This document shows, piece by piece, positions 5,433 to 30,831 of a DNA stretch of 64,000 nucleotides. The first letter of the stretch is position 1. The number at the start of each line of letters is the position of its first letter. The stretch lies in IMG/VR virus record IMGVR_UViG_3300002461_001191; one strand, given 5' to 3'. The notes under the pieces were generated by a model. It ran no database searches, was not told the origin of the DNA, and worked only from the letters and a program-made list of their open reading frames with translations. Source of the DNA: a virus. Taxonomy: Duplodnaviria > Heunggongvirae > Uroviricota > Caudoviricetes. Both the position numbers and the translations under genes were made by a program.

Positions 5433-5864
5433 TTAGTGATTTGTTTGCTCTGGATACCCAAATATACTTTCATATGAAAGTGCCCTATGATGACTTTTAT
5501 ATCTGTATTGATCAAAATAAGATTTAAACTCATCTTCATTCATGGTTTTAAATCTTAAGTCTTCATTGACTTGTATAAATGCTCCCAAACCATAATGTAT
5601 AATAAAAACATTACCAGGTTTTAGTGCAATTTTAGGCACAAAATAAGAATAATTTTCATATGTAAATTCATGATGATTTTCTAAAAGTGTTTGCTTTGCT
5701 TGTTCTAGAATTGGTGCGTCTTCTGGATGAACTCTAATCTTGGTTCTTGAACTTAAAATCATATGTTCAATTTTAGTCCAATCATTTTCATGAAATGCTT
5801 CAACTCTGGCTCCAAGAAAATAAGCTATTCTGTAAATAGTTGGTAGTTGATTTATGCTGTTCAT
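5433..5864 (-). CDS. hypothetical protein
   Basis: 143 aa ORF. Confidence 0.4.
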   Translation of the reverse strand: MNSINQLPTIYRIAYFLGARVEAFHENDWTKIEHMILSSRTKIRVHPEDAPILEQAKQTLLENHHEFTYENYSYFVPKIALKPGNVFIIHYGLGAFIQVNEDLRFKTMNEDEFKSYFDQYRYKSHHRALSYESIFGYPEQTNH

Positions 5865-5952
5865 GATTCATCCTGGGATTTTCTTGATTTATATTTTAAC
5901 ATGATTTGAATTAGAGAAGCTAGAAATATTTAAAATATTTTTCAATTAAGTA

Positions 5953-5982
5953 TTGACAACTCTACAATTGATATGCAATAAT
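5953..5982 (+). promoter_or_regulatory. candidate sigma70 promoter (TTGACA-N18-AATAAT) driving leader/tRNA array
   Basis: Consensus -35 TTGACA at 5953-5958; AT-rich -10 at 5977-5982. Confidence 0.4.
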
Positions 5983-6016
5983 ACAAGCATTGAGATTTAA
6001 TTTAAGGAATAATTCA

Positions 6017-6091
6017 ATGTCTTCACGTTCACAACAATTTGGTTTTTTTCAGTTTGGTCAGTTTGACCAAGCGGGGTGCCATTTTGTTTGA
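6017..6091 (+). CDS. leader peptide 1 (24 aa, MSSRSQQFGFFQFGQFDQAGCHFV), 6 Phe and 5 Gln codons
   Basis: AAGGA RBS 8 nt upstream; ORF ends 24 nt before terminator hairpin; leader 3' end (GGTGC, 6075-6079) is a copy of terminator 3' arm, so it can pair with the 5' arm as an antiterminator. Confidence 0.5.
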   Translation: MSSRSQQFGFFQFGQFDQAGCHFV

Positions 6092-6114
6092 TTAAGTAAG
6101 TATTTCAACAAAAA

Positions 6115-6141
6115 AGCACCTCTAAACAAGGTGCTTTTTTT
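6115..6141 (+). terminator. attenuator/intrinsic terminator copy 1 (AGCACC-tctaaacaa-GGTGCT + T7)
   Basis: 6-bp GC-rich stem, 9-nt loop, 7 T; same sequence at 6270-6297 and a variant at 14653-14679. Confidence 0.6.
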
Positions 6142-6172
6142 ATTGTTAGTTTTAATTTTATTAAGGATTTTT

Positions 6173-6247
6173 ATGATGTTAGTTTTGAATGTTTTTAGCC
6201 AGCAATTTTTTCAGTTCCAGTTTGGAGCTAGGTGTCCTATTGTGTAA
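6173..6247 (+). CDS. leader peptide 2 (24 aa, MMLVLNVFSQQFFQFQFGARCPIV), 6 Phe and 4 Gln codons
   Basis: AAGGA RBS 5 nt upstream; tandem duplicate of leader 1 module; AGGTG at 6230-6238 complementary to terminator 5' arm. Confidence 0.5.
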   Translation: MMLVLNVFSQQFFQFQFGARCPIV

Positions 6248-6269
6248 AAGTTTCGCAACATACTCAATA

Positions 6270-6297
6270 AGGCACCTCTAAACAAGGTGCTTTTTTT
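6270..6297 (+). terminator. attenuator/intrinsic terminator copy 2 (AGGCACC-tctaaacaa-GGTGCT + T7), 12 nt upstream of first tRNA
   Basis: Identical hairpin and loop to copy 1. Confidence 0.6.
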
Positions 6298-6309
6298 ATG
6301 GTTTTTTGC

Positions 6310-6382
6310 AGGGGATTAGTGTAATTGGTTAGCACATCGTCCTTTGAAGTCGAGAGTCTAGGTTCAAGTCCTGGGTCCCCCG
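6310..6382 (+). tRNA. tRNA-Gln(UUG), type a (no encoded CCA; A1.C72 and one U.U in anticodon stem)
   Basis: Acceptor AGGGGAT/GTCCCCC; U8A9; D-stem GTGT/GCAC; anticodon loop CTTTGAA; T-arm CTAGG-TTCAAGT-CCTGG. Confidence 0.55.
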
Positions 6383-6415
6383 CAAAAAATAATGAAAGGA
6401 AATTTAAAAGTTTAT

Positions 6416-6490
6416 TGGGGATAAATCGATTGGAGCAGATACTTGGCTTTGAACCAAGGTGAGTGGGTTCGATTCCCACATCCCCTGCCA
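6416..6490 (+). tRNA. tRNA-Gln(UUG), type b copy 1 (CCA encoded; U1.U72)
   Basis: Acceptor TGGGGAT/ATCCCCT; anticodon stem CTTGG/CCAAG; loop CTTTGAA; T-arm GTGGG-TTCGATT-CCCAC; 75 nt. Confidence 0.7.
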
Positions 6491-6496
6491 AAAAAT

Positions 6497-6572
6497 GGAC
6501 TTGTAGCTCAGTTGGTAGAGCAGCAGACTGAAAATCTGTGTGTCGGCAGTTCGATTCTGCCCAAGTCCACCA
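6497..6572 (+). tRNA. tRNA-Phe(GAA), type a (canonical, CCA encoded)
   Basis: GGACTTG-TA-GCTC-AGTTGGTA-GAGC; anticodon loop CTGAAAA; GGCAG-TTCGATT-CTGCC; CAAGTCC-A-CCA; close to E. coli tRNA-Phe. Confidence 0.9.
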
Positions 6573-6606
6573 GTTAGTTTTAGTTGTTTAATAGGATAGG
6601 TTTAAT

Positions 6607-6684
6607 GCCGCCTTGGTGTAAATTGGTAGAGCACAAAAGACTGAAAATCTTTGGGTCTCGGTTCGATTCCGAGGGGCGGCACCA
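6607..6684 (+). tRNA. tRNA-Phe(GAA), type b (divergent body, CCA encoded)
   Basis: Acceptor GCCGCCT/GGGCGGC; anticodon stem AAAGA/TCTTT; loop CTGAAAA; T-arm CTCGG-TTCGATT-CCGAG. Confidence 0.75.
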
Positions 6685-6718
6685 GGTTGTTTTGTTGAAA
6701 TTATATATGTGTTTTTAT

Positions 6719-6793
6719 TGGGGGTAAATCGATTGGAGCAGATACTTGGCTTTGAACCAAGGTGAGTGGGTTCGATTCCCACACCCCCTGCCA
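6719..6793 (+). tRNA. tRNA-Gln(UUG), type b copy 2 (CCA encoded; U1.U72)
   Basis: Near-identical to 6416-6490; acceptor pair 6:67 changed A-T to G-C on both strands (compensatory), which confirms the register. Confidence 0.7.
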
Positions 6794-6840
6794 ATCTTAA
6801 AATTAAGTATACAGGTAAGTATATTTAATTTTAAGATTAT
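6794..6840. repeat. 18-bp inverted repeat (ATCTTAAAATTAAGTATA / TATATTTAATTTTAAGAT) with 8-nt loop, filling the whole spacer between two tRNAs
   Basis: Reverse-complement arms with one G.U position; begins 1 nt after the CCA of the upstream tRNA and ends 1 nt before the next tRNA. Confidence 0.6.
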
Positions 6841-6916
6841 GCTGTTTTAGCTGATGTGGTCATAGCGCGTGGTTGAAGCCCATGAGAAGTTGGTTCGATT
6901 CCAACAGGCAGCACCA
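6841..6916 (+). tRNA. tRNA-Phe(GAA)-like, type c (G37, two G.U in acceptor stem; CCA encoded)
   Basis: Acceptor GCTGTTT/AGGCAGC; D-stem GCTG/TAGC; anticodon stem CGTGG/CCATG; loop TTGAAGC; T-arm GTTGG-TTCGATT-CCAAC; 76 nt. Confidence 0.5.
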
Positions 6917-6923
6917 GATTATT

Positions 6924-6978
6924 GGGTCGGTTTGTGGTAAACCTAGGAATGCGAGTTCGAGTCTCGTCCGATCCACCA
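6924..6978 (+). other. tRNA-like minihelix: acceptor stem + T-arm + CCA but only 20 nt where D and anticodon arms should be (truncated tRNA or remnant)
   Basis: GGGTCGG ... GCGAG-TTCGAGT-CTCGT-CCGATCC-A-CCA; 55 nt. Confidence 0.35.
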
Positions 6979-7000
6979 GTTGTTTTTTTAAGGGGTTAAT

Positions 7001-7168
7001 ATGAGCAAGCTAGAGAAAAAGAAAGAAAAATTAAAACAAAGAATTGCTGATCTTGAGTTTGAAATGAGGAATATACTTCAGAAGAAATCTCAAGGTGCAG
7101 CTATTAATATTCAAAACTATAACTCAAAGATTATGGATTTGAAAAAAGAGTTGAGTTCCATGAATTAA
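7001..7168 (+). CDS. small coiled-coil protein (55 aa) embedded in the tRNA array
   Basis: ATG 7001 preceded by AAGGGG; MSKLEKKKEKLKQRIADLEFEMRNILQKKSQGAAINIQNYNSKIMDLKKELSSMN; below the length cutoff of the ORF track. Confidence 0.3.
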   Translation: MSKLEKKKEKLKQRIADLEFEMRNILQKKSQGAAINIQNYNSKIMDLKKELSSMN

Positions 7169-7178
7169 TTTTTACAGT

Positions 7179-7253
7179 TGGCGCATAGTGTAATGGTCAG
7201 CACAATTGACTTTGAATCAGTTGGTTCCAGTTCGAATCTGGATGCTCCTGCCA
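7179..7253 (+). tRNA. tRNA-Gln(UUG), type a copy 2 (CCA encoded; U1.U72 and C4.U69 mismatches)
   Basis: TGGCGCA-TA-GTGT-AATGGTCA-GCAC; anticodon stem ATTGA/TCAGT; loop CTTTGAA; TCCAG-TTCGAAT-CTGGA; TGCTCCT-G-CCA. Confidence 0.55.
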
Positions 7254-7340: not shown

Positions 7341-8216
7341 ATGGACAATATTTATTTAGATAATGAATCTTATTTGAAAAAATCTATAGAGAATAAATTT
7401 TTAGATAGTTATATCATCAATATATGTTCTGATGAAAACAGCTTGCTCCAAATCAATCAAGAGGATTGTGATTTTATAAAGAGTAACTGGGAAAATATCA
7501 AAGATTTTAACTCTGTTAGTTCTTGGTCTGAAAACAAGTACCTTATTCCATCATGGTTTTTATTGTTATCTCATGAAGAGCTTGCTTACAAGCTTATAGA
7601 ATCTAAAATTTTCCCTGAATTATTTAAAACCACAAAGGAAAAGTACCATCAACATATAGATGCAAGTCATTTTTTAAAGACAAGTCCTTTAAACGTAATC
7701 AATGATGAGTCTTTATTGAATGTTTTAAACATGCCTTGGATGTTTAGGGATGATGTGAAAATTTTTGATAGAATATTGGACAGACAAGATATGTTCAGTC
7801 CAAAAGAGTTTGTGTGTGATTATATTTATAAGAAACATATGATTTTGACTAATCAATTTGTTAAAGATTTATTGTTTGAAAGTAAATACAGGCCTAATGT
7901 GAAAGAGTTGATAGAGATAGATCAAAATTTGTTAAATATGAAAAAAGGAATGATTTCATCAATCGTACATGGTGCAGCAGTCAATAATGATATAGAAAGT
8001 GTTTTGAATGCTGTAGATCTGGTGAATGATTTGTGCAATATTGGTTTAAAAGATGTTATTTTTGATTTAATGAAGCCAAATCAAAAATCCAATTTATCAT
8101 ATTATGTGAATACAAATGACAACATATTTACACAAATATACAAAAAGAAAAACTTCTTTACTCAACTCAATGACTCTATGGATGTAAAACAAGACAGGTC
8201 AAAAATGAAAATTTAA
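7341..8216 (+). CDS. hypothetical protein
   Basis: 291 aa ORF. Confidence 0.4.
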   Translation: MDNIYLDNESYLKKSIENKFLDSYIINICSDENSLLQINQEDCDFIKSNWENIKDFNSVSSWSENKYLIPSWFLLLSHEELAYKLIESKIFPELFKTTKEKYHQHIDASHFLKTSPLNVINDESLLNVLNMPWMFRDDVKIFDRILDRQDMFSPKEFVCDYIYKKHMILTNQFVKDLLFESKYRPNVKELIEIDQNLLNMKKGMISSIVHGAAVNNDIESVLNAVDLVNDLCNIGLKDVIFDLMKPNQKSNLSYYVNTNDNIFTQIYKKKNFFTQLNDSMDVKQDRSKMKI

Positions 8217-9235: not shown

Positions 9236-9619
9236 TTAACGATTTGGTTTAGGTTTATCATCTTCATTGTTGATATTACTGCCTCTTCTGAGTCTATCAT
9301 TCATCTGTCCAATTGAAGCTGCTGTACTTTTAACCTTTTTGATGACATTGTTGTAGTCTTCATGGCTACCTATCCAAAACCATAGATATCCATGTTCACC
9401 TTCTGGTGTTGTTATTTTCTTCGCAAGTGCTCTATGTTTTCTACCTACTTGTGCACTGTATACCTCGTTATCTGCAATATTAAGAGGTTTAAACTCAACA
9501 GTATGCGGGTCTTTTTTCCATTTTTCAAAGCTATTTACTGCTGTATCTTGTATTTCTGGATTGAGTTTATGAAACAGTTTATCAAAGCTTTCAGTTTTTT
9601 TACTTATCGTCTTTTTCAT
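9236..9619 (-). CDS. RelE/ParE-superfamily type II toxin-like protein (with C-terminal extension)
   Basis: Family-typical layout: N-term helical region then beta core ...KPLNIADNEVYSAQVGRKHRALAKKI...YLWFWIGSHEDY. Confidence 0.45.
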   Translation of the reverse strand: MKKTISKKTESFDKLFHKLNPEIQDTAVNSFEKWKKDPHTVEFKPLNIADNEVYSAQVGRKHRALAKKITTPEGEHGYLWFWIGSHEDYNNVIKKVKSTAASIGQMNDRLRRGSNINNEDDKPKPNR

Positions 9620-10406: not shown

Positions 10407-12686
10407 ATGACAATTGCTCGTACTTGGGATGGGATTAATCTAATGAACTTTAAATTAGTTAATAAGAATAATATATTTAAAGAGGGTACTTTTGAAAATA
10501 TACTTGTGGAACAAGTAATCAAATTCTTCGAGCATGATTGTTACAATAGAGATACAGTAAAAGCTCCATTTTATGCTTCAGAGCATTATTTTTATGAAAA
10601 TATTCTTGCTTCAAGAATTCTAAAATATTTAAGTCAACATAAAATTGATATACCTATGGATATTACATTCAAGTCTCTTCTTGGACAAAAGGCTTGTTGG
10701 TATGCAAGATTGTCTGGTTGTATTGAAGCTAAAAAAATCACTGATGGAGTTTATCACGGATACAAACCTAATGTTCCAGTTTTCGGATTATATCTTGAGT
10801 CTGGTATCATTGATTTGCTCAAAGATTCTGATTTTATCAATAAATTAATTAAAACAAGTCCTACAAAAGATGGATTAAAACATTTAATTGAAGTAGCAAA
10901 GCTATCTTCTGCATTTAGACAACTATTGAGAATGCCAACAATTGAGTTTGATCCTAAAAATGAAAGTTCAATTTATCATAAAAGTAAATATAAAAATTTA
11001 AAAGTTAACAATATAAATATAAAAAATTATCAATCTTTTAATTTTCAAACATGGCCAGAAATAGAAAACATAGAGGTTGCAGCAACAACTAGAGGTATAT
11101 ATCATCATTTGGGAGATGATGTTGCTTTTATGTTAAGTGCAATGGAGTATGGTGATTTTTGTATATTGGGATCAGATGAGTTTGGTGATATTATACCTAT
11201 GTATTATTATTCTTATAATCTAATGAATACTGTTAGCTTTGATGACAATAGAATTTTTAGTTGGGAAGATTTTGATTATATTTATGGTGTACCAAGAATT
11301 AATGCTCTTTATCCATCTGCTAATAATGTTATATTTAAATATGCAAGTGAAGATAAAGATCAGTGCCTTATTAATAAAAAAGAAAATTCTGCTTTAGCTG
11401 GTGCTTTTTGGAATAATTCTGTATTTAATCAGTTATCAGGAAGAAATATAGCAACTAAAAGTTTGAAGGAATTATCTTTAGAGCTTAAACAATGTGTTGA
11501 AAAAGCAATTGAAAATAGTCAATTTGTAAAAAATAATGAAAATTTAGAAAAGTTTTTTTTAGAAAAATATTTTCATAACAAGTGCTTAGATCTCAATAAT
11601 CAGGATGAAGTAGATTTTTTAAACATTGCTAATTCTTTTATTAGAAAAAATTACTCTTTCTTTATAAAAACTGTTGCACAAAAAGTTAACTGTATGGTTA
11701 TTAATCCTGAAGAAAAAACACAGCTTGCTTTCTTTAAAAAATCAGGTGAAAGCAAAGCACCAGCGTACCTTGATTTGCTATATTTATTAAAGTTTTTTAT
11801 GACTCAATCAAAAGAAAATAAAGAGTTGGGATTGACTGTTGAGTTTTATCAAAAAGCTTTAATCAATTTTTTGTTAGGAGATAATCCTAAAGGATTTTGG
11901 GAGAGAGAATATATTCACTTATATAATTATTGGTTAAATTTAGATAAAAAATCATTTGTTGTATCTGATTTAGTTGAGATGAATAATGAGTATAGAATAT
12001 TTATTGTTAATGGTAAGATTGCTACAGGAACGCCATGCTACAGAAATACAACTCCATTTAATGCTTGGACAAAAGGAAGATTAGACCCAAGGTTATGTGA
12101 TGGACATAATGCAACAGAAATTAAATTGGATAATAGTACAAGAAATATTGCAGCAAAATATGGTCGTTTTGCTCGTAAGTTTTTGTCTTTAATGAACAAG
12201 GAATATCCAGAAATAAAAAGTTATGTTTTGGATGTTTGTATAAGTTATGATAAAGATAATAATATGGTAGTGATGCCAATAGAAGTTAATTCTATTAATA
12301 TGTCTGGAGCATATCAGGCTGATATGAGAAAAATATGTGCTGTGGTTGCTGGAAAGAAGTCAAACATATCAAGTTTAAATAATGTTTTTAATTTAGATTC
12401 GTTAATGTCTAATCCTATAGATTTTATTATCAATAAAAGTATATATTATGGTGCTGGAGATGATTCAATTAAAGGTGTTATAGAAGATGTATATGAAATA
12501 CAATCTGATATCATACAGGAAAAAATTAATCAAATAGATCAGAGAAATCCAGATAATTTAACAGATTCAGATGAGAATTATGATGATACTGAAACTAATG
12601 AGTTCCTTGATTTTATTGATAGTGTCAATAAACCAACAATTATTGATTTAGATGTAGATACTACAAATAAAAATGAAAAAATGTGA
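10407..12686 (+). CDS. large protein with C-terminal ATP-grasp-like domain
   Basis: EYRIFIVNGKIATGT ... VLDVCISYDKDNNMVVMPIEVNSINMSGAY resembles ATP-grasp strand motifs; paralogous to 29007-29918. Confidence 0.5.
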   Translation: MTIARTWDGINLMNFKLVNKNNIFKEGTFENILVEQVIKFFEHDCYNRDTVKAPFYASEHYFYENILASRILKYLSQHKIDIPMDITFKSLLGQKACWYARLSGCIEAKKITDGVYHGYKPNVPVFGLYLESGIIDLLKDSDFINKLIKTSPTKDGLKHLIEVAKLSSAFRQLLRMPTIEFDPKNESSIYHKSKYKNLKVNNINIKNYQSFNFQTWPEIENIEVAATTRGIYHHLGDDVAFMLSAMEYGDFCILGSDEFGDIIPMYYYSYNLMNTVSFDDNRIFSWEDFDYIYGVPRINALYPSANNVIFKYASEDKDQCLINKKENSALAGAFWNNSVFNQLSGRNIATKSLKELSLELKQCVEKAIENSQFVKNNENLEKFFLEKYFHNKCLDLNNQDEVDFLNIANSFIRKNYSFFIKTVAQKVNCMVINPEEKTQLAFFKKSGESKAPAYLDLLYLLKFFMTQSKENKELGLTVEFYQKALINFLLGDNPKGFWEREYIHLYNYWLNLDKKSFVVSDLVEMNNEYRIFIVNGKIATGTPCYRNTTPFNAWTKGRLDPRLCDGHNATEIKLDNSTRNIAAKYGRFARKFLSLMNKEYPEIKSYVLDVCISYDKDNNMVVMPIEVNSINMSGAYQADMRKICAVVAGKKSNISSLNNVFNLDSLMSNPIDFIINKSIYYGAGDDSIKGVIEDVYEIQSDIIQEKINQIDQRNPDNLTDSDENYDDTETNEFLDFIDSVNKPTIIDLDVDTTNKNEKM

Positions 12687-13422: not shown

Positions 13423-14481
13423 ATGAATACTATTATGACAAATACAGATAAGGTTAAACAATTTGAAAAAAATTTTTATTCAGTGGTTAAAGAAAACAAT
13501 TTAGAGTTGCTGGAGTTTTTCTTGCTAAATTCTGATTTCCCTAAATATTCTCAATCATACAAACAAAGTGTGATGGACTATCTGGTATACAATGGTCACA
13601 AGTTCCCTAATTTTGATTTACCTTTGTGGTCTTTGACAAATGACTATATGGGTGTCAATGGTAATATACATGAGAATGCAGATAGACCTTTGAGACTTGC
13701 AGCTTCATTGAATGTGCCTTATGCAAAGTTTTTGTTGACATCAAATAAACTTAAAGAGCATGCCAATATAAATGAAACCAATGATGGCTCTAGTGCTATT
13801 TTAAATGCTATTCAAAGTGAAAATTTGGATTTTGTTAAGTTCTTACTGACAAGTAAAGAGTTAAAAATTCATGCAAAGCTCAATATATCAGATAAGCCAT
13901 TTAATGATCCGTTGTGTAAAGCATGTGAGGGTAAGAATAACGATATTTTAGAGTATTTGTTGAGTGAAGAGGCGTATGTCAATCAAGATGGATTTAGTCC
14001 TGTTGAGAATTTGCAAAGATTTCAAAATGAAACTTTTAAGAAATTAATTCGTCAAGATAACAAAGATATGATTCAGAAGATTTTACAATCTGACATTTTG
14101 GACATAAAAGAAAATGGTTATGATTTTTTATGTCAAGCAATTACTATAGACGCAAGAAAAACAACTGATTATCTATCTGATTTTTTAAATATACCTGTTG
14201 ATTTAATGAACATGAGATATAAGGATAAAAGTATCTTCTTCCACATTGCTCACACCGCCCACAATTCCAGAATACCGAAACATTCTTTTTTGCATGAGAT
14301 ATTGGAAAATCCCAACTTTTCAATTTCCTATGAAGAAATAGATGATATAGATAGCCTATACCATTATGGTGAAATTCAGACTGAAAAACTAATGGCTTAC
14401 ATAGAGAGGTTTGAAAAGATTCACAATATGGACAAGGTTTTACAATCAAAAGAACAATTACATAAAAAGCTTAAATTATAA
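13423..14481 (+). CDS. ankyrin-repeat-like protein
   Basis: Repeated ~33-aa units with ..PL.LAAS.N...KFLLTS / SAILNAIQS.NLDFVKFLLTS pattern. Confidence 0.35.
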   Translation: MNTIMTNTDKVKQFEKNFYSVVKENNLELLEFFLLNSDFPKYSQSYKQSVMDYLVYNGHKFPNFDLPLWSLTNDYMGVNGNIHENADRPLRLAASLNVPYAKFLLTSNKLKEHANINETNDGSSAILNAIQSENLDFVKFLLTSKELKIHAKLNISDKPFNDPLCKACEGKNNDILEYLLSEEAYVNQDGFSPVENLQRFQNETFKKLIRQDNKDMIQKILQSDILDIKENGYDFLCQAITIDARKTTDYLSDFLNIPVDLMNMRYKDKSIFFHIAHTAHNSRIPKHSFLHEILENPNFSISYEEIDDIDSLYHYGEIQTEKLMAYIERFEKIHNMDKVLQSKEQLHKKLKL

Positions 14482-15996: not shown

Positions 15997-17973
15997 TTAA
16001 ATGAGGTAAAGAAATTTGTGAATATTTTCACTTATTTCTTTAGTTCTTGAGTTTATGTCATCAATAGTAAAAAAATCTTGTTTTTGACATATTAATTCTA
16101 TTTGTTTTAATTGGTGTTTTTGTTTTTCATAAACATATTGTTTTTTCTTGATAAAAGTATTATTTTTTGCCTCTTCATTTGAAGTATCATCAAGTAAAAT
16201 AAAGTTTCCAAGTTGATTTAATTCACTTTTATTTAATTCTTTATATTTAGGATTAATTTGTATTAATTTTTTCTGCACTAATGGAATAATATGTTCAATT
16301 TGAATATTTTCTTTAATAGTTTGTTTAAAAATTGCTTGTTTTAATTGGTTAAAATCAACTTGAGATAGTGATAATTCATATAAATATAGAATTCCTTTTC
16401 TAACTTGTAAAAAATTATACTCTTTCCATTTTTCGTATATTTTGGTTTCATCTATTGGATTAAAAAATAGTTTTGTGCTAATAAATTTGATTATATCGTT
16501 ATTGGTTTTAACCTCTTGTAATAAGTCTGGGAAAACAGATATATTCATAATATTGTTGTTTATATAGTTGTTGTTTGCTCCATTGTAAACACCCATAAAA
16601 TAAATTTTAATAATATCTTGTAGTAGTTTTATAAATTTATTTTTTTCTATTTGTTCATTATTTTTAGGGTATAGTTCTAATAAAACAGGAGTGTAAAGAT
16701 CTAATAAGTCTAAGTGATCTAATATATATAAATAGATAGATGCCTCATGAAAGGGATCAGTAAAACCTTTAATTTGTTTATATATTATTTCAAATTGCTC
16801 TAATTGTTTGTAGAAATTTAATGTTTCGTTATTACTCCAAACGGTAGGATTGAGAACTGAATTGTTAAGGAAAGAAGTAAGTTTTTCTATGCTTACTATT
16901 TTCTCGTTTTTGAAAATGCTTGTATTTGTTATTTTAAAAACAGACATAACATATCTATCAAGATTGTCTTCACCAAGATTTGTTTTCAATTGTTTAAAAA
17001 AATCATTAACTTTTTGACCATTATCTGTTCCGTCTTCTGCTAATATAAAGGTATTTTTAATTAAATCGATAGGCTTTAGTGTTTTCCCTGTATTATTTTT
17101 ATTTTGAAATATAATTGATGGATTAATTTTTGAACTAAATACTTCTATAGTAATAAGAGTATTAAAAAAACTATCTATAACGTTACTAAAATCTTTTAAA
17201 GATTCCTTTGAAATGTACAATTTATGGTTGTAATCATATACTATGTTTAATTTTTTATGAAAAAAATGAAATATACAAACTAAAGCTTCTAGTGTATGTT
17301 TAAAAGATTGTATATCTTTTTTAATATCCTTATTTTTATAATATAATATATTTAGTATTTCTGTATATGTTTGTTTCTTGTTTTTATTTTGACATAATAT
17401 ATTAAATATGTTTTCTCTGTTTTTTATGAGAGAGCAATAAAATTCATTATATTGAGTTGAGTTTATAAATTTAAGCTTTGATACTTCTTCACCGTTTTTG
17501 TTGTTAACTAAAACATTATTTAAAGAGTTTAGTTTTATGTGTTCTTGTTTAAATTTAGAGTAAATCTCTTTTTTCCTTTTATCAATTGATAATGTTAAGG
17601 TCTTCTCAAAATTTTCTTCATTTAAAGATATTGTTTTTTGAAATAGAACCTCTAAAAATAGTGCTATCAAGCTCAATGTTGTTGTTCTTTGTTGTCCATC
17701 CATTATAGAAACTAAATTTTCTTTAACTGGTTGTAAGATTAGACTGCCAATTTCTGCATTAATGTATTCATTAGAAAAGTCATTTGATAAGTTCACATTA
17801 AAAATAGTGTCTAAAAGTTTATGAACATGCTTATGTTCCCATTCATACTCTCTTTGGTAGTACTGCATAACAAATTCTGGATTTTCTAAAGAAAATGCTT
17901 CTCCTGTCATGTAGTCTTTAATTTTCCTGACTTCAGCTTGTTTAATGTTTTTTTCATCTGTTAAAGATAGCAT
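15997..17973 (-). CDS. GmrSD-family type IV restriction endonuclease (DUF262 + DUF1524)
   Basis: N-terminal DUF262 with DGQQRTTTL motif; C-terminal His-Me finger IEHIIPL ... GNFILLDDTSNEEAKN. Confidence 0.75.
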   Translation of the reverse strand: MLSLTDEKNIKQAEVRKIKDYMTGEAFSLENPEFVMQYYQREYEWEHKHVHKLLDTIFNVNLSNDFSNEYINAEIGSLILQPVKENLVSIMDGQQRTTTLSLIALFLEVLFQKTISLNEENFEKTLTLSIDKRKKEIYSKFKQEHIKLNSLNNVLVNNKNGEEVSKLKFINSTQYNEFYCSLIKNRENIFNILCQNKNKKQTYTEILNILYYKNKDIKKDIQSFKHTLEALVCIFHFFHKKLNIVYDYNHKLYISKESLKDFSNVIDSFFNTLITIEVFSSKINPSIIFQNKNNTGKTLKPIDLIKNTFILAEDGTDNGQKVNDFFKQLKTNLGEDNLDRYVMSVFKITNTSIFKNEKIVSIEKLTSFLNNSVLNPTVWSNNETLNFYKQLEQFEIIYKQIKGFTDPFHEASIYLYILDHLDLLDLYTPVLLELYPKNNEQIEKNKFIKLLQDIIKIYFMGVYNGANNNYINNNIMNISVFPDLLQEVKTNNDIIKFISTKLFFNPIDETKIYEKWKEYNFLQVRKGILYLYELSLSQVDFNQLKQAIFKQTIKENIQIEHIIPLVQKKLIQINPKYKELNKSELNQLGNFILLDDTSNEEAKNNTFIKKKQYVYEKQKHQLKQIELICQKQDFFTIDDINSRTKEISENIHKFLYLI

Positions 17974-26213: not shown

Positions 26214-28211
26214 TCAAGGTCTCATTTTAGGCTTATTCTCAAGAGTTTCATGGGGTTCTGTCTCTCTTTGATGAACTAAATCTTTATTTTTCTTTAAATA
26301 AACAAGTAAAATTCCAAGAGCAGAGGGTGTCACTCCAGCAATTCTAGATGCTTGTCCAATGGTCTCAGGCTTGAACTGATTGAGCTTTTGTTTGGTCTCT
26401 GTACTCAATGAAGTAATTTCATTGTAATCAAAGTTTTGTGGTAATTTTGTATTTTCAGATTTACTCATCCTTTGAACTTCATCTGCTTGTCTATCAATAT
26501 AGCCAGCATATTTAAATCCAATTTGAACTTGATCAGTAATCTGTTGTGCAAGCTCAGCACCATACTTTTCAGAAATGGATTGATAAGATACTTCTTGTAG
26601 AACATCTTTTTTAGAGTGCTCTAAAACTTTTTCTATGGTTGAATAATCTACTCCAGGTCTTTTGATGAGATCTGCCAAATTAACTTCTTTAAGAAGTGGT
26701 GATCCGAGTATGCCAATAGCTGCCTCATCTTTAAAAATATTGGGATTAACCCAAGTATCTTTCATTTTTTGTTTATAGATTTCAACTGCTTCTTGTTTTT
26801 CGTTAAATAGTTTCCATCTTTCATCACTGACAAGCCCCAATTCTCTACCAATTGGTGTGAGTCTTTGGTCTGCATTGTCTTCTCTGAGAGAGAGTCTATA
26901 CTCTGATCTACTTGTAAACATTCTATAAGGCTCATTGAGTTCTTTTGTGGTCAAATCATCAACCATAACTCCAATATAAGAGTTGCTTCTTTGGAATATG
27001 AAAGGCTCTAGTCCTTTTGCTCTGAGTGCAGCATTGATACCAGCACAAAGACCTTGACCTTGTGCTTCTTCATATCCTGTAGAACCAAGAATTTGTGAAG
27101 CACAGAAAAGATTTTGGATAACCTTGCTCTCTAATGATCGGCTAAAAGATGATGGCAAGTAGTAGTCATACTCAATGGCATAACCTGGTCTTAATATATA
27201 GGCGTTTTCAAGTCCCTTTATACTTCTGACTGCTTTGAGTTGAACATCAAAAGGCAAAGAAGTTGAAATTCCGTTTGGATAATACTCATTGGTTGTAAGA
27301 CCTTCAGGCTCAAGATAGACTTGATGACTGTCTCTGTCTGCAAAGCGAGTGATTTTATCTTCAATGCTTGGGCAATATCTGGGTCCGGGGCCGTCAAATT
27401 TATTCAAAATAAATCCAGAGCGGTCAAATCCAGATCTAAAGATTTCATGAGTTGTCTCATTTGTCTTTGTAATCCAGCATGGAACTTGTGATGGGTGCAT
27501 TGATTTGCTACCCATGAAACTCATGACAGGCAAATTGCCATCAAGTGCTCCATCACCGTCTTGTCTTTCCATTTTGCTGAAATCAATGGTTCTGCCATCA
27601 ATTCTAGGTGGTGTACCAGTTTTAAGTCTACCTGTAGGAACAAGCTCTTTCATTCTTTGAGCAAGACTTATTGAAGCTGGGTCTCCTGCTCTGCCTGCTG
27701 TATGTGTCTCAAGACCAATATGAACTTTACCATTTTGAAAAGTGCCAGTAGTCAAAACTACAGTTTTTGATTTGAAACGAATACCTGATTGTGTCACAAC
27801 ACCGCAAACGCTATCACCATTCATGATGACATCATCAACTGCTTGCTGAAAAACTTGTAGATTTTCTTGATTTTCCACTTGTTTTCTAATGGAAGCTTTA
27901 TACAGGATTCTATCAACTTGTGCTCTTGTTGCTTGAACGGCTGGGCCTTTGGAAGCGTTGAGTATTCTGAATTGTATGCCAGATTCATCAGTTGCGATTG
28001 CTGAAGCACCACCAAGAGCGTCAACCTCTTTCATCAGGTGCCCTTTACCAATACCACCCATAGATGGGTTACAGCTTAGTTGTCCAATGGTTTCTATATT
28101 GTGTGTAACAAGAAGTGTTTTGCAGCCCATTCTAGCTGCTGCCAATGCTGCTTCAGTACCACCATGTCCACCGCCTACAACGATCACATCATAAAATTCT
28201 GGATAGTCCAT
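26214..28211 (-). CDS. mnmG: tRNA uridine-5-carboxymethylaminomethyl synthesis enzyme MnmG (GidA)
   Basis: FAD motif [14 protein letters not shown]; collinear MnmG signature throughout; C-terminal extension (665 aa). Confidence 0.9.
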
Positions 28212-28359: not shown

Positions 28360-29010
28360 ATGATGATAATACAGTCATTTCAACCTCAATCTGTGCTAGA
28401 TGATATCAATAAAAACGGTTTGGCATTTTCAAAACCAGATTTTTCTATTTGGGATGGTGAAATCATTAACCCAGATTTAATTTGGGGGTTTAGGCATTCA
28501 TATGAGTGGATGGTTCAACAGATGAATAGAAGTGTAGAGAATAACACATTTGCTAAATTTCCATTCTGGGGTTGGGCTTGGTCTGGAGACAACGATCAAA
28601 AATATATAGATTTATCATTACATAAAGAGTATTCGGGAGAATACTTAATAACAATGGAGTTGGATGAAAAAGATTTATTTTTTAGTGATTTTCAATTATG
28701 GCACTATGTTTTGAACTATTGGCCAATAGTGTCTTCAGAAGAAGAAAGAATTTTCTTTGAGGCATTGGAGAAAGACAAAAAAAACAATTATTATGATAAT
28801 AAACCGTTGAAAGATATTGTTTATGATTTAAAGATAAGAAACACTTGGAATAAGATTTTTTCTTTAAGGAAAAGTGGTGATTTTTTTATCAGTTCTTTAA
28901 GTGAAAAAGAGATTGAGTACTTAGAAATGAGTCCTGAAGAAAAAATAGTGACTCAATCTTGTTTTTGGAATATTGAGAAAAAAAATATATTAAAGGTTGA
29001 AAAAATATGA
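28360..29010 (+). CDS. hypothetical protein, translationally coupled to ATP-grasp gene
   Basis: 216 aa; stop overlaps next start (ATGA). Confidence 0.4.
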   Translation: MMIIQSFQPQSVLDDINKNGLAFSKPDFSIWDGEIINPDLIWGFRHSYEWMVQQMNRSVENNTFAKFPFWGWAWSGDNDQKYIDLSLHKEYSGEYLITMELDEKDLFFSDFQLWHYVLNYWPIVSSEEERIFFEALEKDKKNNYYDNKPLKDIVYDLKIRNTWNKIFSLRKSGDFFISSLSEKEIEYLEMSPEEKIVTQSCFWNIEKKNILKVEKI

Positions 29011-29918
29011 GAGTAAAGTGGTTAATTCAGTCTAATGGAGTTACTAGAAAACCTTTGGAAGAAGAGTTTTTTGCAAAAAATCTTCAAATGTTTGATTTTG
29101 CAATGATTCCATTCACACATAAAATCATTAATCTGGACACTATTTTTTTAGATTTTTTAACAAATAAAGATGTCTCCTATGTTCTAAAGGGTGGTACAAG
29201 AATATTGGATATTTTAAAAGATGACGGGTTTGTAGAAGAAAATAAAAAAATCTTATTGGAACATGCTTCTGAGGAATATGTTGATTTATTTTTTAATAGA
29301 TTTAAAGCTGGGTTGTTTTATGATTTAGACAAGTTTGATCAAGCACATTATTCCTCTATTGGATTGCCTATGCTCAATCAAAGTCCATTTGTTGGGTATT
29401 TTCACGATGTAAAAGCCATTGTTTTTGAAAAAGACATGTTTGTGAAGCCCACATCTGATGGAAAGAGTTTTGCTGGTAAGATTCTACCCAAAGGGCAAAG
29501 TTTGGAAGATTTGCTAAAAACCATCATGTATCAAGAAAAGGTTAGTAAAGAGACTATCATGTTCTCTGAGATTAAAAATGTTCTTCATGAGTTCAGGTTT
29601 TTCATTATCAATGATGAGGTTGTCACTGGTAGTCAATACATGCAAGATCATAGGGTTGTTGTAAGAAATTTGTCAGATTCAGAGTTGGATAAAAAAGCAC
29701 TTGAGGTGGCTCAAGATTATGCTTTGCTGTATAAGCCAAGTGATGTGTTTACTCTAGATATATGTCTTGAGAGTAGTGGAAGATGGAGTATTGTGGAGTA
29801 TAACTGTTTTAATTGTTCAGGTCTTTATGCTGCTGACTTGATGAAGCTGACTCAATCAATGGAGAATTTTTTAATCAAAAAAACAACAAATTTAAAAATT
29901 AAATCATCCTTTACTTAA
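29007..29918 (+). CDS. ATP-grasp-like protein (paralog of C-terminal domain of 10407-12686)
   Basis: EFRFFIINDEVVTGS ... FTLDICLESSGRWSIVEYNCFNCSGLY. Confidence 0.5.
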   Translation: MRVKWLIQSNGVTRKPLEEEFFAKNLQMFDFAMIPFTHKIINLDTIFLDFLTNKDVSYVLKGGTRILDILKDDGFVEENKKILLEHASEEYVDLFFNRFKAGLFYDLDKFDQAHYSSIGLPMLNQSPFVGYFHDVKAIVFEKDMFVKPTSDGKSFAGKILPKGQSLEDLLKTIMYQEKVSKETIMFSEIKNVLHEFRFFIINDEVVTGSQYMQDHRVVVRNLSDSELDKKALEVAQDYALLYKPSDVFTLDICLESSGRWSIVEYNCFNCSGLYAADLMKLTQSMENFLIKKTTNLKIKSSFT

Positions 29919-29959: not shown

Positions 29960-30292
29960 ATGAATACAGAAAAAATTGTTTCCTTCTTGCGTGGTATTTC
30001 TCACTTGAGTGAGATTAATGTAAAACCCAATAAAGACTTTAAACACAAGTTTGTTGATTTGACTGGTCAAATGAACTGGGTTGTTGTGGATGATAGTAAG
30101 GTTGCTATTGATTCTCATGCAAGAATTATTTTTGATTTGTCTGAAAAAGAAGACAGATTGGAATTACTCAGCGCTCTTGCATATCAGAAATATAAATCAG
30201 ACCAATATGACTTGATTGTAGCAGAAAACGAAAAGTTTGTGCTTGAACATTTTAAAGGTGATGATATCAGTGGTTATTTCTTTGACGCCTGA
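29960..30292 (+). CDS. hypothetical protein
   Basis: 110 aa ORF. Confidence 0.35.
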   Translation: MNTEKIVSFLRGISHLSEINVKPNKDFKHKFVDLTGQMNWVVVDDSKVAIDSHARIIFDLSEKEDRLELLSALAYQKYKSDQYDLIVAENEKFVLEHFKGDDISGYFFDA

Positions 30293-30831
30293 TATTTTGT
30301 TTTTTGCTCAATGATTGCTGTGATTGTTTTCTTCTTCAGTAGAAGGTCAATCAACAAAGATCCTGAAATGAATACAATATTTTGATGTTCTTTTACAATG
30401 TTTTTTGATCGCTCACCAGTTTTGCCAGTGTGGGCAAAAACTCCGTAATAGTATTTGCCATCTTTTACCTTTTGTGCCAAATCTAAAACATCTTTATTGT
30501 TGATGTAGTTCTTATATCTTTTGCATTGAATCAACACTTTGCCTTGTTTTATTTTGAATTTTCCGTCTATACCTCCGTCATTGGAGTATGATTTGTTCCT
30601 TATAATATGGACATTGGTATCTTGTATAACATTGAGGATGAGTTCTTCAAAAACAAAAGGATTTATTTTTTTTAAGTAGTTTATGCTCTTGGGATAGCCA
30701 TATTCTTGAGAACTTATTTCAACTATTTTTTTCAAAACTTCTTTGGCTTTTCTGATTCTATACAAATGAACCCATTTGCCCAAGAGTCTGAACCTGTTGA
30801 TTATAATTGACCAAATTTTTATCCAATTCAT
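30274..30831 (-). CDS. restriction-endonuclease-like protein (Mrr_cat domain only)
   Basis: SNDGGIDGKFKIKQGKVLIQCKRYKNY matches Mrr catalytic core D-x-GIDG ... QCK. Confidence 0.55.
   Translation of the reverse strand: MNWIKIWSIIINRFRLLGKWVHLYRIRKAKEVLKKIVEISSQEYGYPKSINYLKKINPFVFEELILNVIQDTNVHIIRNKSYSNDGGIDGKFKIKQGKVLIQCKRYKNYINNKDVLDLAQKVKDGKYYYGVFAHTGKTGERSKNIVKEHQNIVFISGSLLIDLLLKKKTITAIIEQKTKYQASKK

Follow-up and report, generated by a model that had tools for sequence, protein, structure and literature searches.

Tandem Phe/Gln-rich leader modules, probably ribosome-mediated attenuators, upstream of a tRNA-Gln/tRNA-Phe gene array

The 64,000-nt stretch of DNA analyzed here, listed as virus record IMGVR_UViG_3300002461_001191 in IMG/VR and hereafter called the window, is AT-rich chromosomal DNA (~32% G+C) of an uncultured bacterium. 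Between positions 5953 and 7253 it carries a plus-strand locus that comprises a promoter, a leader of two paralogous modules, and an array of tRNA genes of only two specificities, glutamine (Gln) and phenylalanine (Phe). Each module combines a short open reading frame (ORF) rich in Phe and Gln codons with an intrinsic terminator. An initial annotation of the window had proposed that the modules control transcription of the tRNA genes by leader-peptide attenuation.

Leader modules and the tRNA array

The locus opens with a sigma-70-type promoter (5953–5982) matching the consensus at 11 of 12 positions, in which TTGACA and AATAAT are separated by 18 nt and the −10 hexamer is preceded by TG (extended −10); the predicted transcription start lies near 5989–5991. 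The leader consists of two paralogous modules of 140 nt each that are 77% identical and share one layout, namely a Shine-Dalgarno sequence AAGGA, an ATG codon 5–8 nt further on, a 24-codon ORF, a 24-nt spacer, and the intrinsic terminator. The initial annotation had placed the two ORFs at exactly the positions found here, 6017–6091 (ORF 1) and 6173–6247 (ORF 2), and had been right to assign a ribosome-binding site to each, as AAGGA precedes the ATG codons by 8 nt (6004–6008) and 5 nt (6163–6167), respectively. ORF 1 encodes MSSRSQQFGFFQFGQFDQAGCHFV, with six Phe and five Gln residues at codon positions 6–8, 10–13, 15, 16, 18, and 23, whereas ORF 2 encodes MMLVLNVFSQQFFQFQFGARCPIV, with five Phe and four Gln residues. 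The 10–11 Phe/Gln codons originally counted in each ORF are therefore correct for ORF 1 (11) and an overestimate for ORF 2 (9).

Of the 413 small ORFs of the window, only the two leader ORFs have Phe and Gln as their two most common residues. When 268 small ORFs starting with ATG were ranked by combined Phe and Gln content, the leader ORFs occupied the first and fourth positions. Relative to the frequency of these residues in the window proteome (9.4%), the binomial probability of the observed content is 2 × 10^−6 for ORF 1 and 1 × 10^−4 for ORF 2, the two enrichments not being independent because the modules are paralogous. The choice of codons is also biased: five of the nine leader Gln codons are CAG, compared with 19% in the genes of the window (p = 0.015), and UUU accounts for 10 of the 11 Phe codons, so that most of the presumed sensing codons would be read by wobble by the tRNAs encoded downstream.

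Both modules end in an intrinsic terminator, as initially annotated. Terminator 1 (6110–6141, stem 6110–6140) is formed by a 12-bp stem and a 7-nt loop followed by a U run (−13.5 kcal/mol), and terminator 2 (6269–6297, stem 6269–6293) by a 9-bp stem with the same 7-nt loop, again followed by a U run (−10.5 kcal/mol). Each stem is followed by a run of 7 T, and the hairpin GCACCTCTAAACAAGGTGC together with its U run is the same in both modules.

The array contains seven plus-strand tRNA genes (6310–7253), four for tRNA-Gln(UUG) and three for tRNA-Phe(GAA), on which ARAGORN and the Rfam family RF00005 agree (48–73 bits vs. a gathering score of 29) and which confirm the composition given in the initial annotation; no further tRNA gene was found by either method in the window. 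The genes are separated by spacers of 6–47 nt and are not recent copies of each other, since they represent three types of tRNA-Gln, one of them present twice at 98% identity, and three types of tRNA-Phe. The first gene (6310–6383) is a type A tRNA-Gln with an A1·C72 mismatch, G73, and no encoded CCA. It is followed by a type B tRNA-Gln with an unusual D arm and a U1·U72 mismatch (6416–6490), a tRNA-Phe of canonical shape (6497–6572, 73 bits), a divergent tRNA-Phe isodecoder with an enlarged D loop (6607–6684), the second copy of the type B tRNA-Gln (6719–6793, repeat family D2), another divergent tRNA-Phe isodecoder with G37 and C38 in the anticodon loop (6841–6916), and a type C tRNA-Gln (7179–7253). 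A mismatched 1:72 pair and G73 are common to all four tRNA-Gln genes, a combination that fits glutamine identity.

The distance from the end of terminator 2 to the first tRNA gene is 12 nt, and a promoter scan of the plus strand detected no promoter-like sites between 5982 and 6776. At least the first five tRNA genes would thus depend on transcriptional read-through past both terminators.

Three further features were observed within the array. A truncated tRNA-like element of 56 nt (6923–6978) was called by neither ARAGORN nor Rfam. Its acceptor stem has 7 bp, its T arm is canonical (GCGAG-TTCGAGT-CTCGT), and CCA is encoded after discriminator A (ACCA end), but the D and anticodon arms are replaced by a single short hairpin; the element may be either a decayed tRNA gene or a minihelix-type RNA. 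An ORF of 55 amino acids with its own ribosome-binding site (7001–7168) encodes a Lys/Glu-rich coiled-coil protein for which Pfam returned generic coiled-coil matches only. Between the tRNA-Gln gene at 6719–6793 and the tRNA-Phe gene at 6841–6916 lies an AT-rich 20-bp inverted repeat (6793–6838; 95% complementary, 6-nt loop), the halves of which resemble the flanks of the core promoter at 5937–5953 and 5981–6011 (repeat families D7 and D10). The repeat has the appearance of another leader copy that has lost its promoter, although in AT-rich DNA the resemblance could also be due to chance.

An origin of the modules themselves from decayed tRNA genes was considered and rejected, as no tRNA match was found at E ≤ 10 in 5940–6312. 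A hairpin of ORF 2, GTTCCAGTTTGGAGC (6214–6234), resembles the T arm (7224–7244) of the tRNA-Gln gene at 7179–7253, with 76% identity over 21 nt, which could be a trace of common origin or a coincidence.

Alternative RNA structures and their conservation

In both modules, the end of the leader ORF is able to pair with the 5′ arm of the terminator. Antiterminator 1 (6073–6122; −16.0 kcal/mol, z = −3.4, 2 of 1000 shuffles as stable) is formed by a 5′ arm that covers codons 19–24 and the stop codon (6073–6091) and a 3′ arm (6105–6122) that holds the terminator 5′ arm GCACCTC. Antiterminator 2 (6230–6277; −16.1 kcal/mol, z = −3.8, 2 of 1000 shuffles as stable) has the same arrangement, with codons 20–24 and the stop codon in the 5′ arm and the terminator 5′ arm GGCACCT in the 3′ arm. 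The initial annotation had suggested such a structure from 5-nt copies of the terminator 3′ arm in the ORF ends. The copy in ORF 1 (GGTGC at 6075–6079) lies where it was reported and that in ORF 2 (AGGTG) at 6230–6234 rather than 6234–6238, and the helices to which they belong are far longer than these matches. Folding confirmed that terminator and antiterminator exclude each other, which is required of a ribosome-mediated attenuator and was found here in silico only, and that the antiterminator is the more stable of the two.

Within the Phe/Gln codon run, a 9-bp hairpin with a GUU loop (6052–6072, −11.6 kcal/mol) appears in every minimum-energy fold of module 1; its counterpart in module 2 has 7 bp and the same loop (6213–6229, −7.4 kcal/mol). 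These hairpins directly abut the antiterminator in both modules and are possible RNA polymerase pause hairpins, judging from the predicted folds.

Relatives of the locus were found through the divergently transcribed neighbor gene, for which a set of 5.8 billion proteins contains just two further homologue clusters (67% identity each). They comprise the contigs L005/L006 and L007 of two Legionellales-like uncultured organisms, which extend the comparative set to three closely related taxa with two modules each (six modules); in addition, contig L018, from the same sample as L005, represents the distal end of a relative's array. L005, L006, and L007 all share the promoter, the two modules, and the first tRNA-Gln gene with the window. 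In the three-way alignment, the promoter, the Shine-Dalgarno sites, codons 1–17 of ORF 1, the core of ORF 2, both terminators, and the first tRNA gene are almost invariant. Thus, the promoter of L005 and L007 differs in a single spacer base; AAGGA is retained before both ORFs, the spacer between it and the ATG of ORF 1 being altered in L007; codons 1–17 of ORF 1 are invariant at the nucleotide level; and the type A tRNA-Gln is near-identical in L005 and L007. By contrast, approximately one-third of positions differ in the spacers between stop codon and terminator, the DNA 5′ of the promoter cannot be aligned, and the proteins encoded in the flanks are 49–83% identical. Since spacers, upstream DNA, and flanking proteins have diverged, the invariance of the leader is attributable to selection and not to recent transfer.

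ORF 2 of L005 and L007 encodes MILVFNFFSQQFFQFQFGARC(P/L)IV and includes 11 Phe and Gln residues among its 24 codons. The differences from the window comprise Leu-to-Phe and Val-to-Phe changes and one TTT/TTC difference, i.e., Phe codons were gained in the relatives.

The distal array end on L018 contains a type B tRNA-Gln, a canonical tRNA-Phe that is 100% identical to that at 6497–6572, the 55-aa ORF at the same array position (159–326, ~75% amino acid identity), and a type C tRNA-Gln whose acceptor-stem differences from the window gene keep or restore pairing. As far as it has been assembled, the array of the relative consists of Gln- and Phe-type genes only, so that the combination of this leader with this cargo is a stable trait of the clade; Phe/Gln-rich mini-ORFs before such arrays, for which the initial annotation had advised searching related genomes, are thereby documented in two organisms. 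One gene of the relative is of separate interest: the second array gene of L005 (48–122, minus strand) is a copy of the type B tRNA-Gln with a 6-nt anticodon loop, CGATGT, that lacks UUG, and it was not called by ARAGORN. This copy represents either a pseudo-tRNA or an unusual tRNA-like RNA and suggests birth-and-death turnover within the array.

Comparison of the two paralogous ORFs points to translation. Among 17 aligned codons there are eight synonymous and five non-synonymous differences. The synonymous ones include TCA/AGC (Ser), CAA/CAG, TTT/TTC, GGT/GGA, GCG/GCT, TGC/TGT, GTT/GTG, and TGA/TAA (stop), and two of the five non-synonymous ones introduce Phe or Gln or exchange one for the other. 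The insertions and deletions that separate the paralogues, 12 nt inside the ORF and four N-terminal codons, are in frame and cancel each other, so that both modules have the same ORF length and the same distance of 99 nt from ATG to terminator; the distance from stop codon to terminator is likewise fixed. Such divergence is expected of a sequence that is read by ribosomes, unlike that of a small RNA gene, and by this pattern the ORFs look translated.

An antiterminator helix of at least 14 bp (−15.7 to −18.9 kcal/mol) was predicted in all six modules and exceeds the terminator in stability. In dinucleotide shuffles of the upstream part, z-scores range from −3.4 to −6.0, and between 0 and 4 of 1000 shuffled sequences reach the observed antiterminator stability. 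In the gap-free alignment of the six modules, 91.7% of the cells in antiterminator pairs can pair, compared with 34–64% when the partners are slid by 1–3 columns. In two antiterminator pairs, both partners differ between the paralogues (UA/AU and GC/UA), and a CCT-to-CTT change in module 2 of L007 closes a mismatch. The antiterminator was still returned when RNAalifold was applied to full-length modules with the terminator 3′ arm included. RNAalifold also extended it by pairing the terminator loop sequence CUAAAC (6123–6128 and 6279–6284) with GUUUGG in the codon run (6052–6057 and 6220–6225); both segments are invariant, and this pairing would account for the invariance of the loop.

The effect of a ribosome on the choice between the two structures was modeled by hiding a footprint from −15 to +12 nt around the A site and computing the probability of the terminator stem. 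This probability does not exceed 0.06 when the A site is at any of codons 3–14, is still low at codon 15 (≤0.33) and, in module 2, also at codon 16, and rises to ~0.98–0.99 from codon 17 or 18 through the stop codon. The codon at which read-through gives way to termination is thus 16 or 17 according to the module, just past the Phe/Gln run; in the two modules of the window, 17 of the 20 Phe/Gln codons are located at or before codon 16. When no ribosome is present, the predicted fold is the antiterminator in five of six modules (terminator probability 0.00–0.20), the exception being module 1 of the window, where the terminator prevails (0.92). With the antiterminator as the default, termination would occur only if a ribosome kept pace with the polymerase and arrived at the ORF end, and a general arrest of translation should open the switch as well. 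The classical attenuation architecture originally assigned to the modules therefore stands with respect to the ORF, the cognate codons, the terminator, and the antiterminator, whereas their logic is not that of the trp type.

The best plus-strand match of both modules among 4227 Rfam families, at relaxed thresholds, is the Phe leader (RF01859), which aligns over its full length (30.1 bits and E = 0.003 for 6172–6299; 27.4 bits and E = 0.013 for 6027–6143; 373-nt search). Both scores fall short of the 55-bit gathering score, and the modules therefore do not belong to this family.

Proposed attenuation mechanism and competing explanations

Every testable prediction that ribosome-mediated attenuation makes at the level of sequence appears to be supported by these data, and the locus is probably a set of tandem leader-peptide attenuators whose cargo is a polycistronic tRNA-Gln(UUG)/tRNA-Phe(GAA) array. 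In the proposed mechanism, transcription would begin at the strong promoter (5953–5982), and in each module a ribosome would load at AAGGA/ATG and translate the 24-codon ORF, in which codons 6–17 are mostly Phe and Gln codons, chiefly UUU and CAG, both read by wobble. The 5′ arm of the antiterminator would be provided by the final five or six codons together with the stop codon, and its 3′ arm would include the terminator 5′ arm. If Phe and Gln codons are decoded rapidly, the ribosome would be at the end of the ORF while the terminator is being synthesized and would cover the antiterminator 5′ arm, upon which the terminator would fold and transcription stop. If the ribosome lags, stalls on the Phe/Gln run, or has never been loaded, the more stable antiterminator would form first, and the polymerase would read through into the next module and then into the tRNA genes. 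The outcome would be negative feedback on the capacity to decode Phe and Gln codons, with two serial switches sharpening the response. Translation of the ORFs, termination, coupling of ribosome and polymerase, and the physiological signal are all inferred here from the sequence. The signal could be housekeeping tRNA homeostasis, a general translation-stress response, or damage to tRNAs for which variant isodecoders are held in reserve.

Several points weigh against this interpretation. The covariation is drawn from three close taxa and two paralogues, so that in essence it reflects a single divergence event, and with so few sequences the shuffle control carries little weight. The folding model describes equilibrium, and the extent of the footprint (−15 to +12 nt) was assumed. 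An anti-antiterminator, corresponding to the 1:2 pairing of trp, is predicted only in module 1 of the window, which leaves the classical four-segment model incomplete; this pairing is a trait of the trp-type subclass and not of the attenuation mechanism itself. The matches to the Rfam Phe leader are far below the gathering score and partly driven by U-rich codons and the terminator. Weak promoter-like sites exist within the array (6776–6825). Finally, additional tRNA is of no help when amino acids are scarce, so that the adaptive logic would require a signal at the level of tRNA.

The competing explanation that survives best, which we nevertheless regard as rather unlikely, is that the leader senses translation stress in general and not the decoding of particular codons. 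The array would then be a tRNA reserve for any arrest caused by antibiotics, toxins, or ribosome shortage, and the codon bias would merely tune sensitivity. The ribosome-free fold of five of the six modules, with its antiterminator more stable than the terminator, agrees with such a sensor, as does the prediction of the mask model that failed initiation or a stall at any of codons 3–14 also results in read-through; moreover, a cryptic tRNA array induced by translational stress is described for Anabaena (PMC8421152, PMC10272220). What a general sensor leaves unexplained is the enrichment of the leaders in exactly the two amino acids of the array, the Phe codons gained in the relatives, and the preference for the rare CAG codon. 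It overlaps with codon-specific attenuation and does not exclude it.

A more specific possibility for the signal, also unlikely in our estimate, is that the array is a damage-sensing reserve. The divergent Phe and Gln isodecoders (three types of each, with altered anticodon loops and stems) would be kept nearly silent behind the two attenuators and would be transcribed only when ribosomes stall because a tRNA-targeting toxin has cleaved or inactivated the working tRNAs. Such a toxin might, for example, be an anticodon nuclease from a competitor, a phage defense system, or an amoebal host.

We consider it improbable that the modules are two independent small genes, encoding peptides or small RNAs and provided with their own terminators, and that the array is transcribed by leaky read-through or from an unrecognized promoter, the Phe/Gln match being a coincidence of T-rich DNA. 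Any small gene ends in a terminator, TTT is common in an AT-rich genome, conserved peptides might act in trans in the manner of peTrpL (PMC7298713), and the weak sites at 6776–6825 might supply a promoter. However, the cores of the ORFs are invariant even at synonymous sites, whereas the nearby spacers diverge, and a conserved antiterminator with statistical support overlaps both the ORF end and the terminator. The fixed ORF length and stop-to-terminator distance, the gap of only 12 nt between terminator 2 and the first tRNA gene, and the uniqueness of Phe and Gln as the top two residues among the 413 small ORFs are not expected of independent genes either. It is highly improbable that the leader is a decaying relic of a duplicated pheL/pheM-type Phe attenuator that lost its original cargo and now lies without function before tRNA genes: the sub-threshold Phe leader matches of both modules agree with such a descent, but strong purifying selection acts on every functional element even though the flanking proteins of the taxa have diverged to 49–83% identity, the Phe codons are interleaved with Gln codons, which are absent from Phe leaders, and the Gln/Phe-only array is itself conserved.

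Genomic setting, related systems, and significance

The window contains housekeeping genes for PncB, MnmG, NAD synthase, and a class II aminoacyl-tRNA synthetase, as well as a gene for an ankyrin-repeat protein (13423–14481). Its PncB is 53–60% identical to PncB of uncultured Legionellales genomes, and a contig that matches the window over the stretch compared is present in the ENA assembly ERZ922819 (NCBI WGS LNFM01), which derives from an activated-carbon metagenome. The organism is also represented in the SRR28154521–29 series. The phage origin implied by the database record was rejected, megablast against phage records having returned a generic tRNA match only. The toxin and defense genes comprise a ParE-like toxin gene (9236–9619) and the restriction-type genes GmrSD (15997–17973) and Mrr (30274–30831), all on the minus strand; a tRNA-targeting nuclease was not recognized in this neighborhood. 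Two R2K-clade ATP-grasp proteins are encoded on the plus strand, one of 759 aa (10407–12686) and one of 303 aa (28360–29918), the latter preceded by a DUF3841 gene; the R2K gene that adjoins the array is syntenic in the relative represented by L018. MnmG/GidA, which modifies U34 of tRNA-Gln(UUG) among other tRNAs, is encoded on the minus strand 19 kb from the array (26214–28211) and is probably just a housekeeping gene, although its activity bears on the reading of CAG by the UUG anticodon.

The array is flanked by two orphan genes, one of 143 aa (5433–5864, minus strand) and the other of 291 aa (7341–8216, plus strand), each with one or two homologue clusters among the 5.8 billion proteins. 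Searches of Pfam and NCBIfam with the 143-aa, 291-aa, and 55-aa proteins returned no family match, and the 291-aa protein could not be used for a fold search because of the low quality of its AlphaFold model (pLDDT 42.6). As there is no strong terminator between the array and the 291-aa gene, the two may be co-transcribed.

In the searches made so far, the element is restricted to the three sampled taxa. Viral contigs scanned with the terminator hairpin, the type B tRNA-Gln, and a degenerate leader pattern gave no match, plasmid records gave generic tRNA similarity only, and a metagenome scan with the invariant hairpin GCACCTCTAAACAAGGTGC gave only three unrelated chance terminators. A genome scan with PncB recovered Legionellales metagenome-assembled genomes (53–60% identity) in which no array was found close to this gene, nor was there one in the vicinity of the next YkuD relative (44% identity); these more distant loci are syntenic for PncB or YkuD.

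The closest parallels in leader architecture are pheL–pheA and pheM–pheST of Gammaproteobacteria, in which a promoter-proximal Phe-rich ORF is followed by antiterminator and terminator hairpins, the terminator precedes the cargo, and the position of the ribosome decides the outcome. Their cargo is a biosynthetic enzyme or an aminoacyl-tRNA synthetase, whereas here it consists of tRNA genes. The present leader also differs in its mixture of Phe and Gln codons, its two serial modules, the lack of a conserved anti-antiterminator, and the length of its ORFs (24 codons vs. 15 for pheL). Two short ORFs, each expected to control stem-loops and downstream transcription, are described for the Salmonella mgtCBR leader (PMC3641672); those ORFs are different, respond to different signals, and precede protein-coding genes, whereas the modules considered here are paralogous, have the same codon bias, and precede tRNA genes. 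T-box leaders likewise use competing antiterminator and terminator helices to report the state of a specific tRNA. They bind uncharged tRNA directly and need no translation, whereas the apical loops are the least conserved part of the present modules; no T-box match was found by Rfam at E ≤ 10 in 5940–6312. E. coli pheU and pheV, which encode a tRNA-Phe(GAA) of canonical shape like that at 6497–6572, were rejected as a precedent for the attenuator, because at both loci the promoter directly abuts the tRNA and there is no leader ORF.

Among tRNA arrays, so-called L-arrays cover most amino-acid specificities. The trn operon of Anabaena sp. PCC 7120 is the nearest functional analogue of the locus, being described as an accessory and normally repressed polycistronic tRNA array that is turned on when translation is compromised (PMC8421152, PMC10272220). 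According to the same descriptions, it contains 26 genes, and L-arrays contain up to 43; the array of the window, with seven genes of two specificities, is not an L-array by that standard. The trn operon is controlled by a protein repressor, TrcR, whereas here a cis-acting RNA switch would sense the ribosome, and the terms attenuator, leader, and terminator do not occur in the text of the trn paper. No report of a leader-peptide attenuator in front of tRNA genes was found in the literature searched; in particular, a search for the relevant terms in Naville & Gautheret (2010) yielded no leader-peptide attenuation of tRNA genes.

To our knowledge, and in the literature searched, such attenuation is known to govern biosynthetic operons, aminoacyl-tRNA synthetases, transporters, and resistance genes. 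Leader-peptide attenuation, the textbook bacterial gauge of charged-tRNA supply, is itself known; what would be new, as judged from the literature searched, is that tRNA genes form the cargo. The element is compact (~350 nt), and it provides a search image for other genomes, namely cognate-codon-rich mini-ORFs located 5′ of tRNA arrays. With its default-on logic, it is potentially a sensor of translation stress as well. Phages carry tRNA sets that evade tRNA-targeting defenses, and an array that senses tRNA damage, should that possibility prove true, would be a chromosomal and self-triggering counterpart of these sets. If the attenuation model is correct, the switch would govern the very tRNAs that match its sensing codons, closing a direct feedback loop on decoding capacity, and the transcription of tRNA genes could be controlled codon-specifically in cis and not only by growth rate or stringent control.

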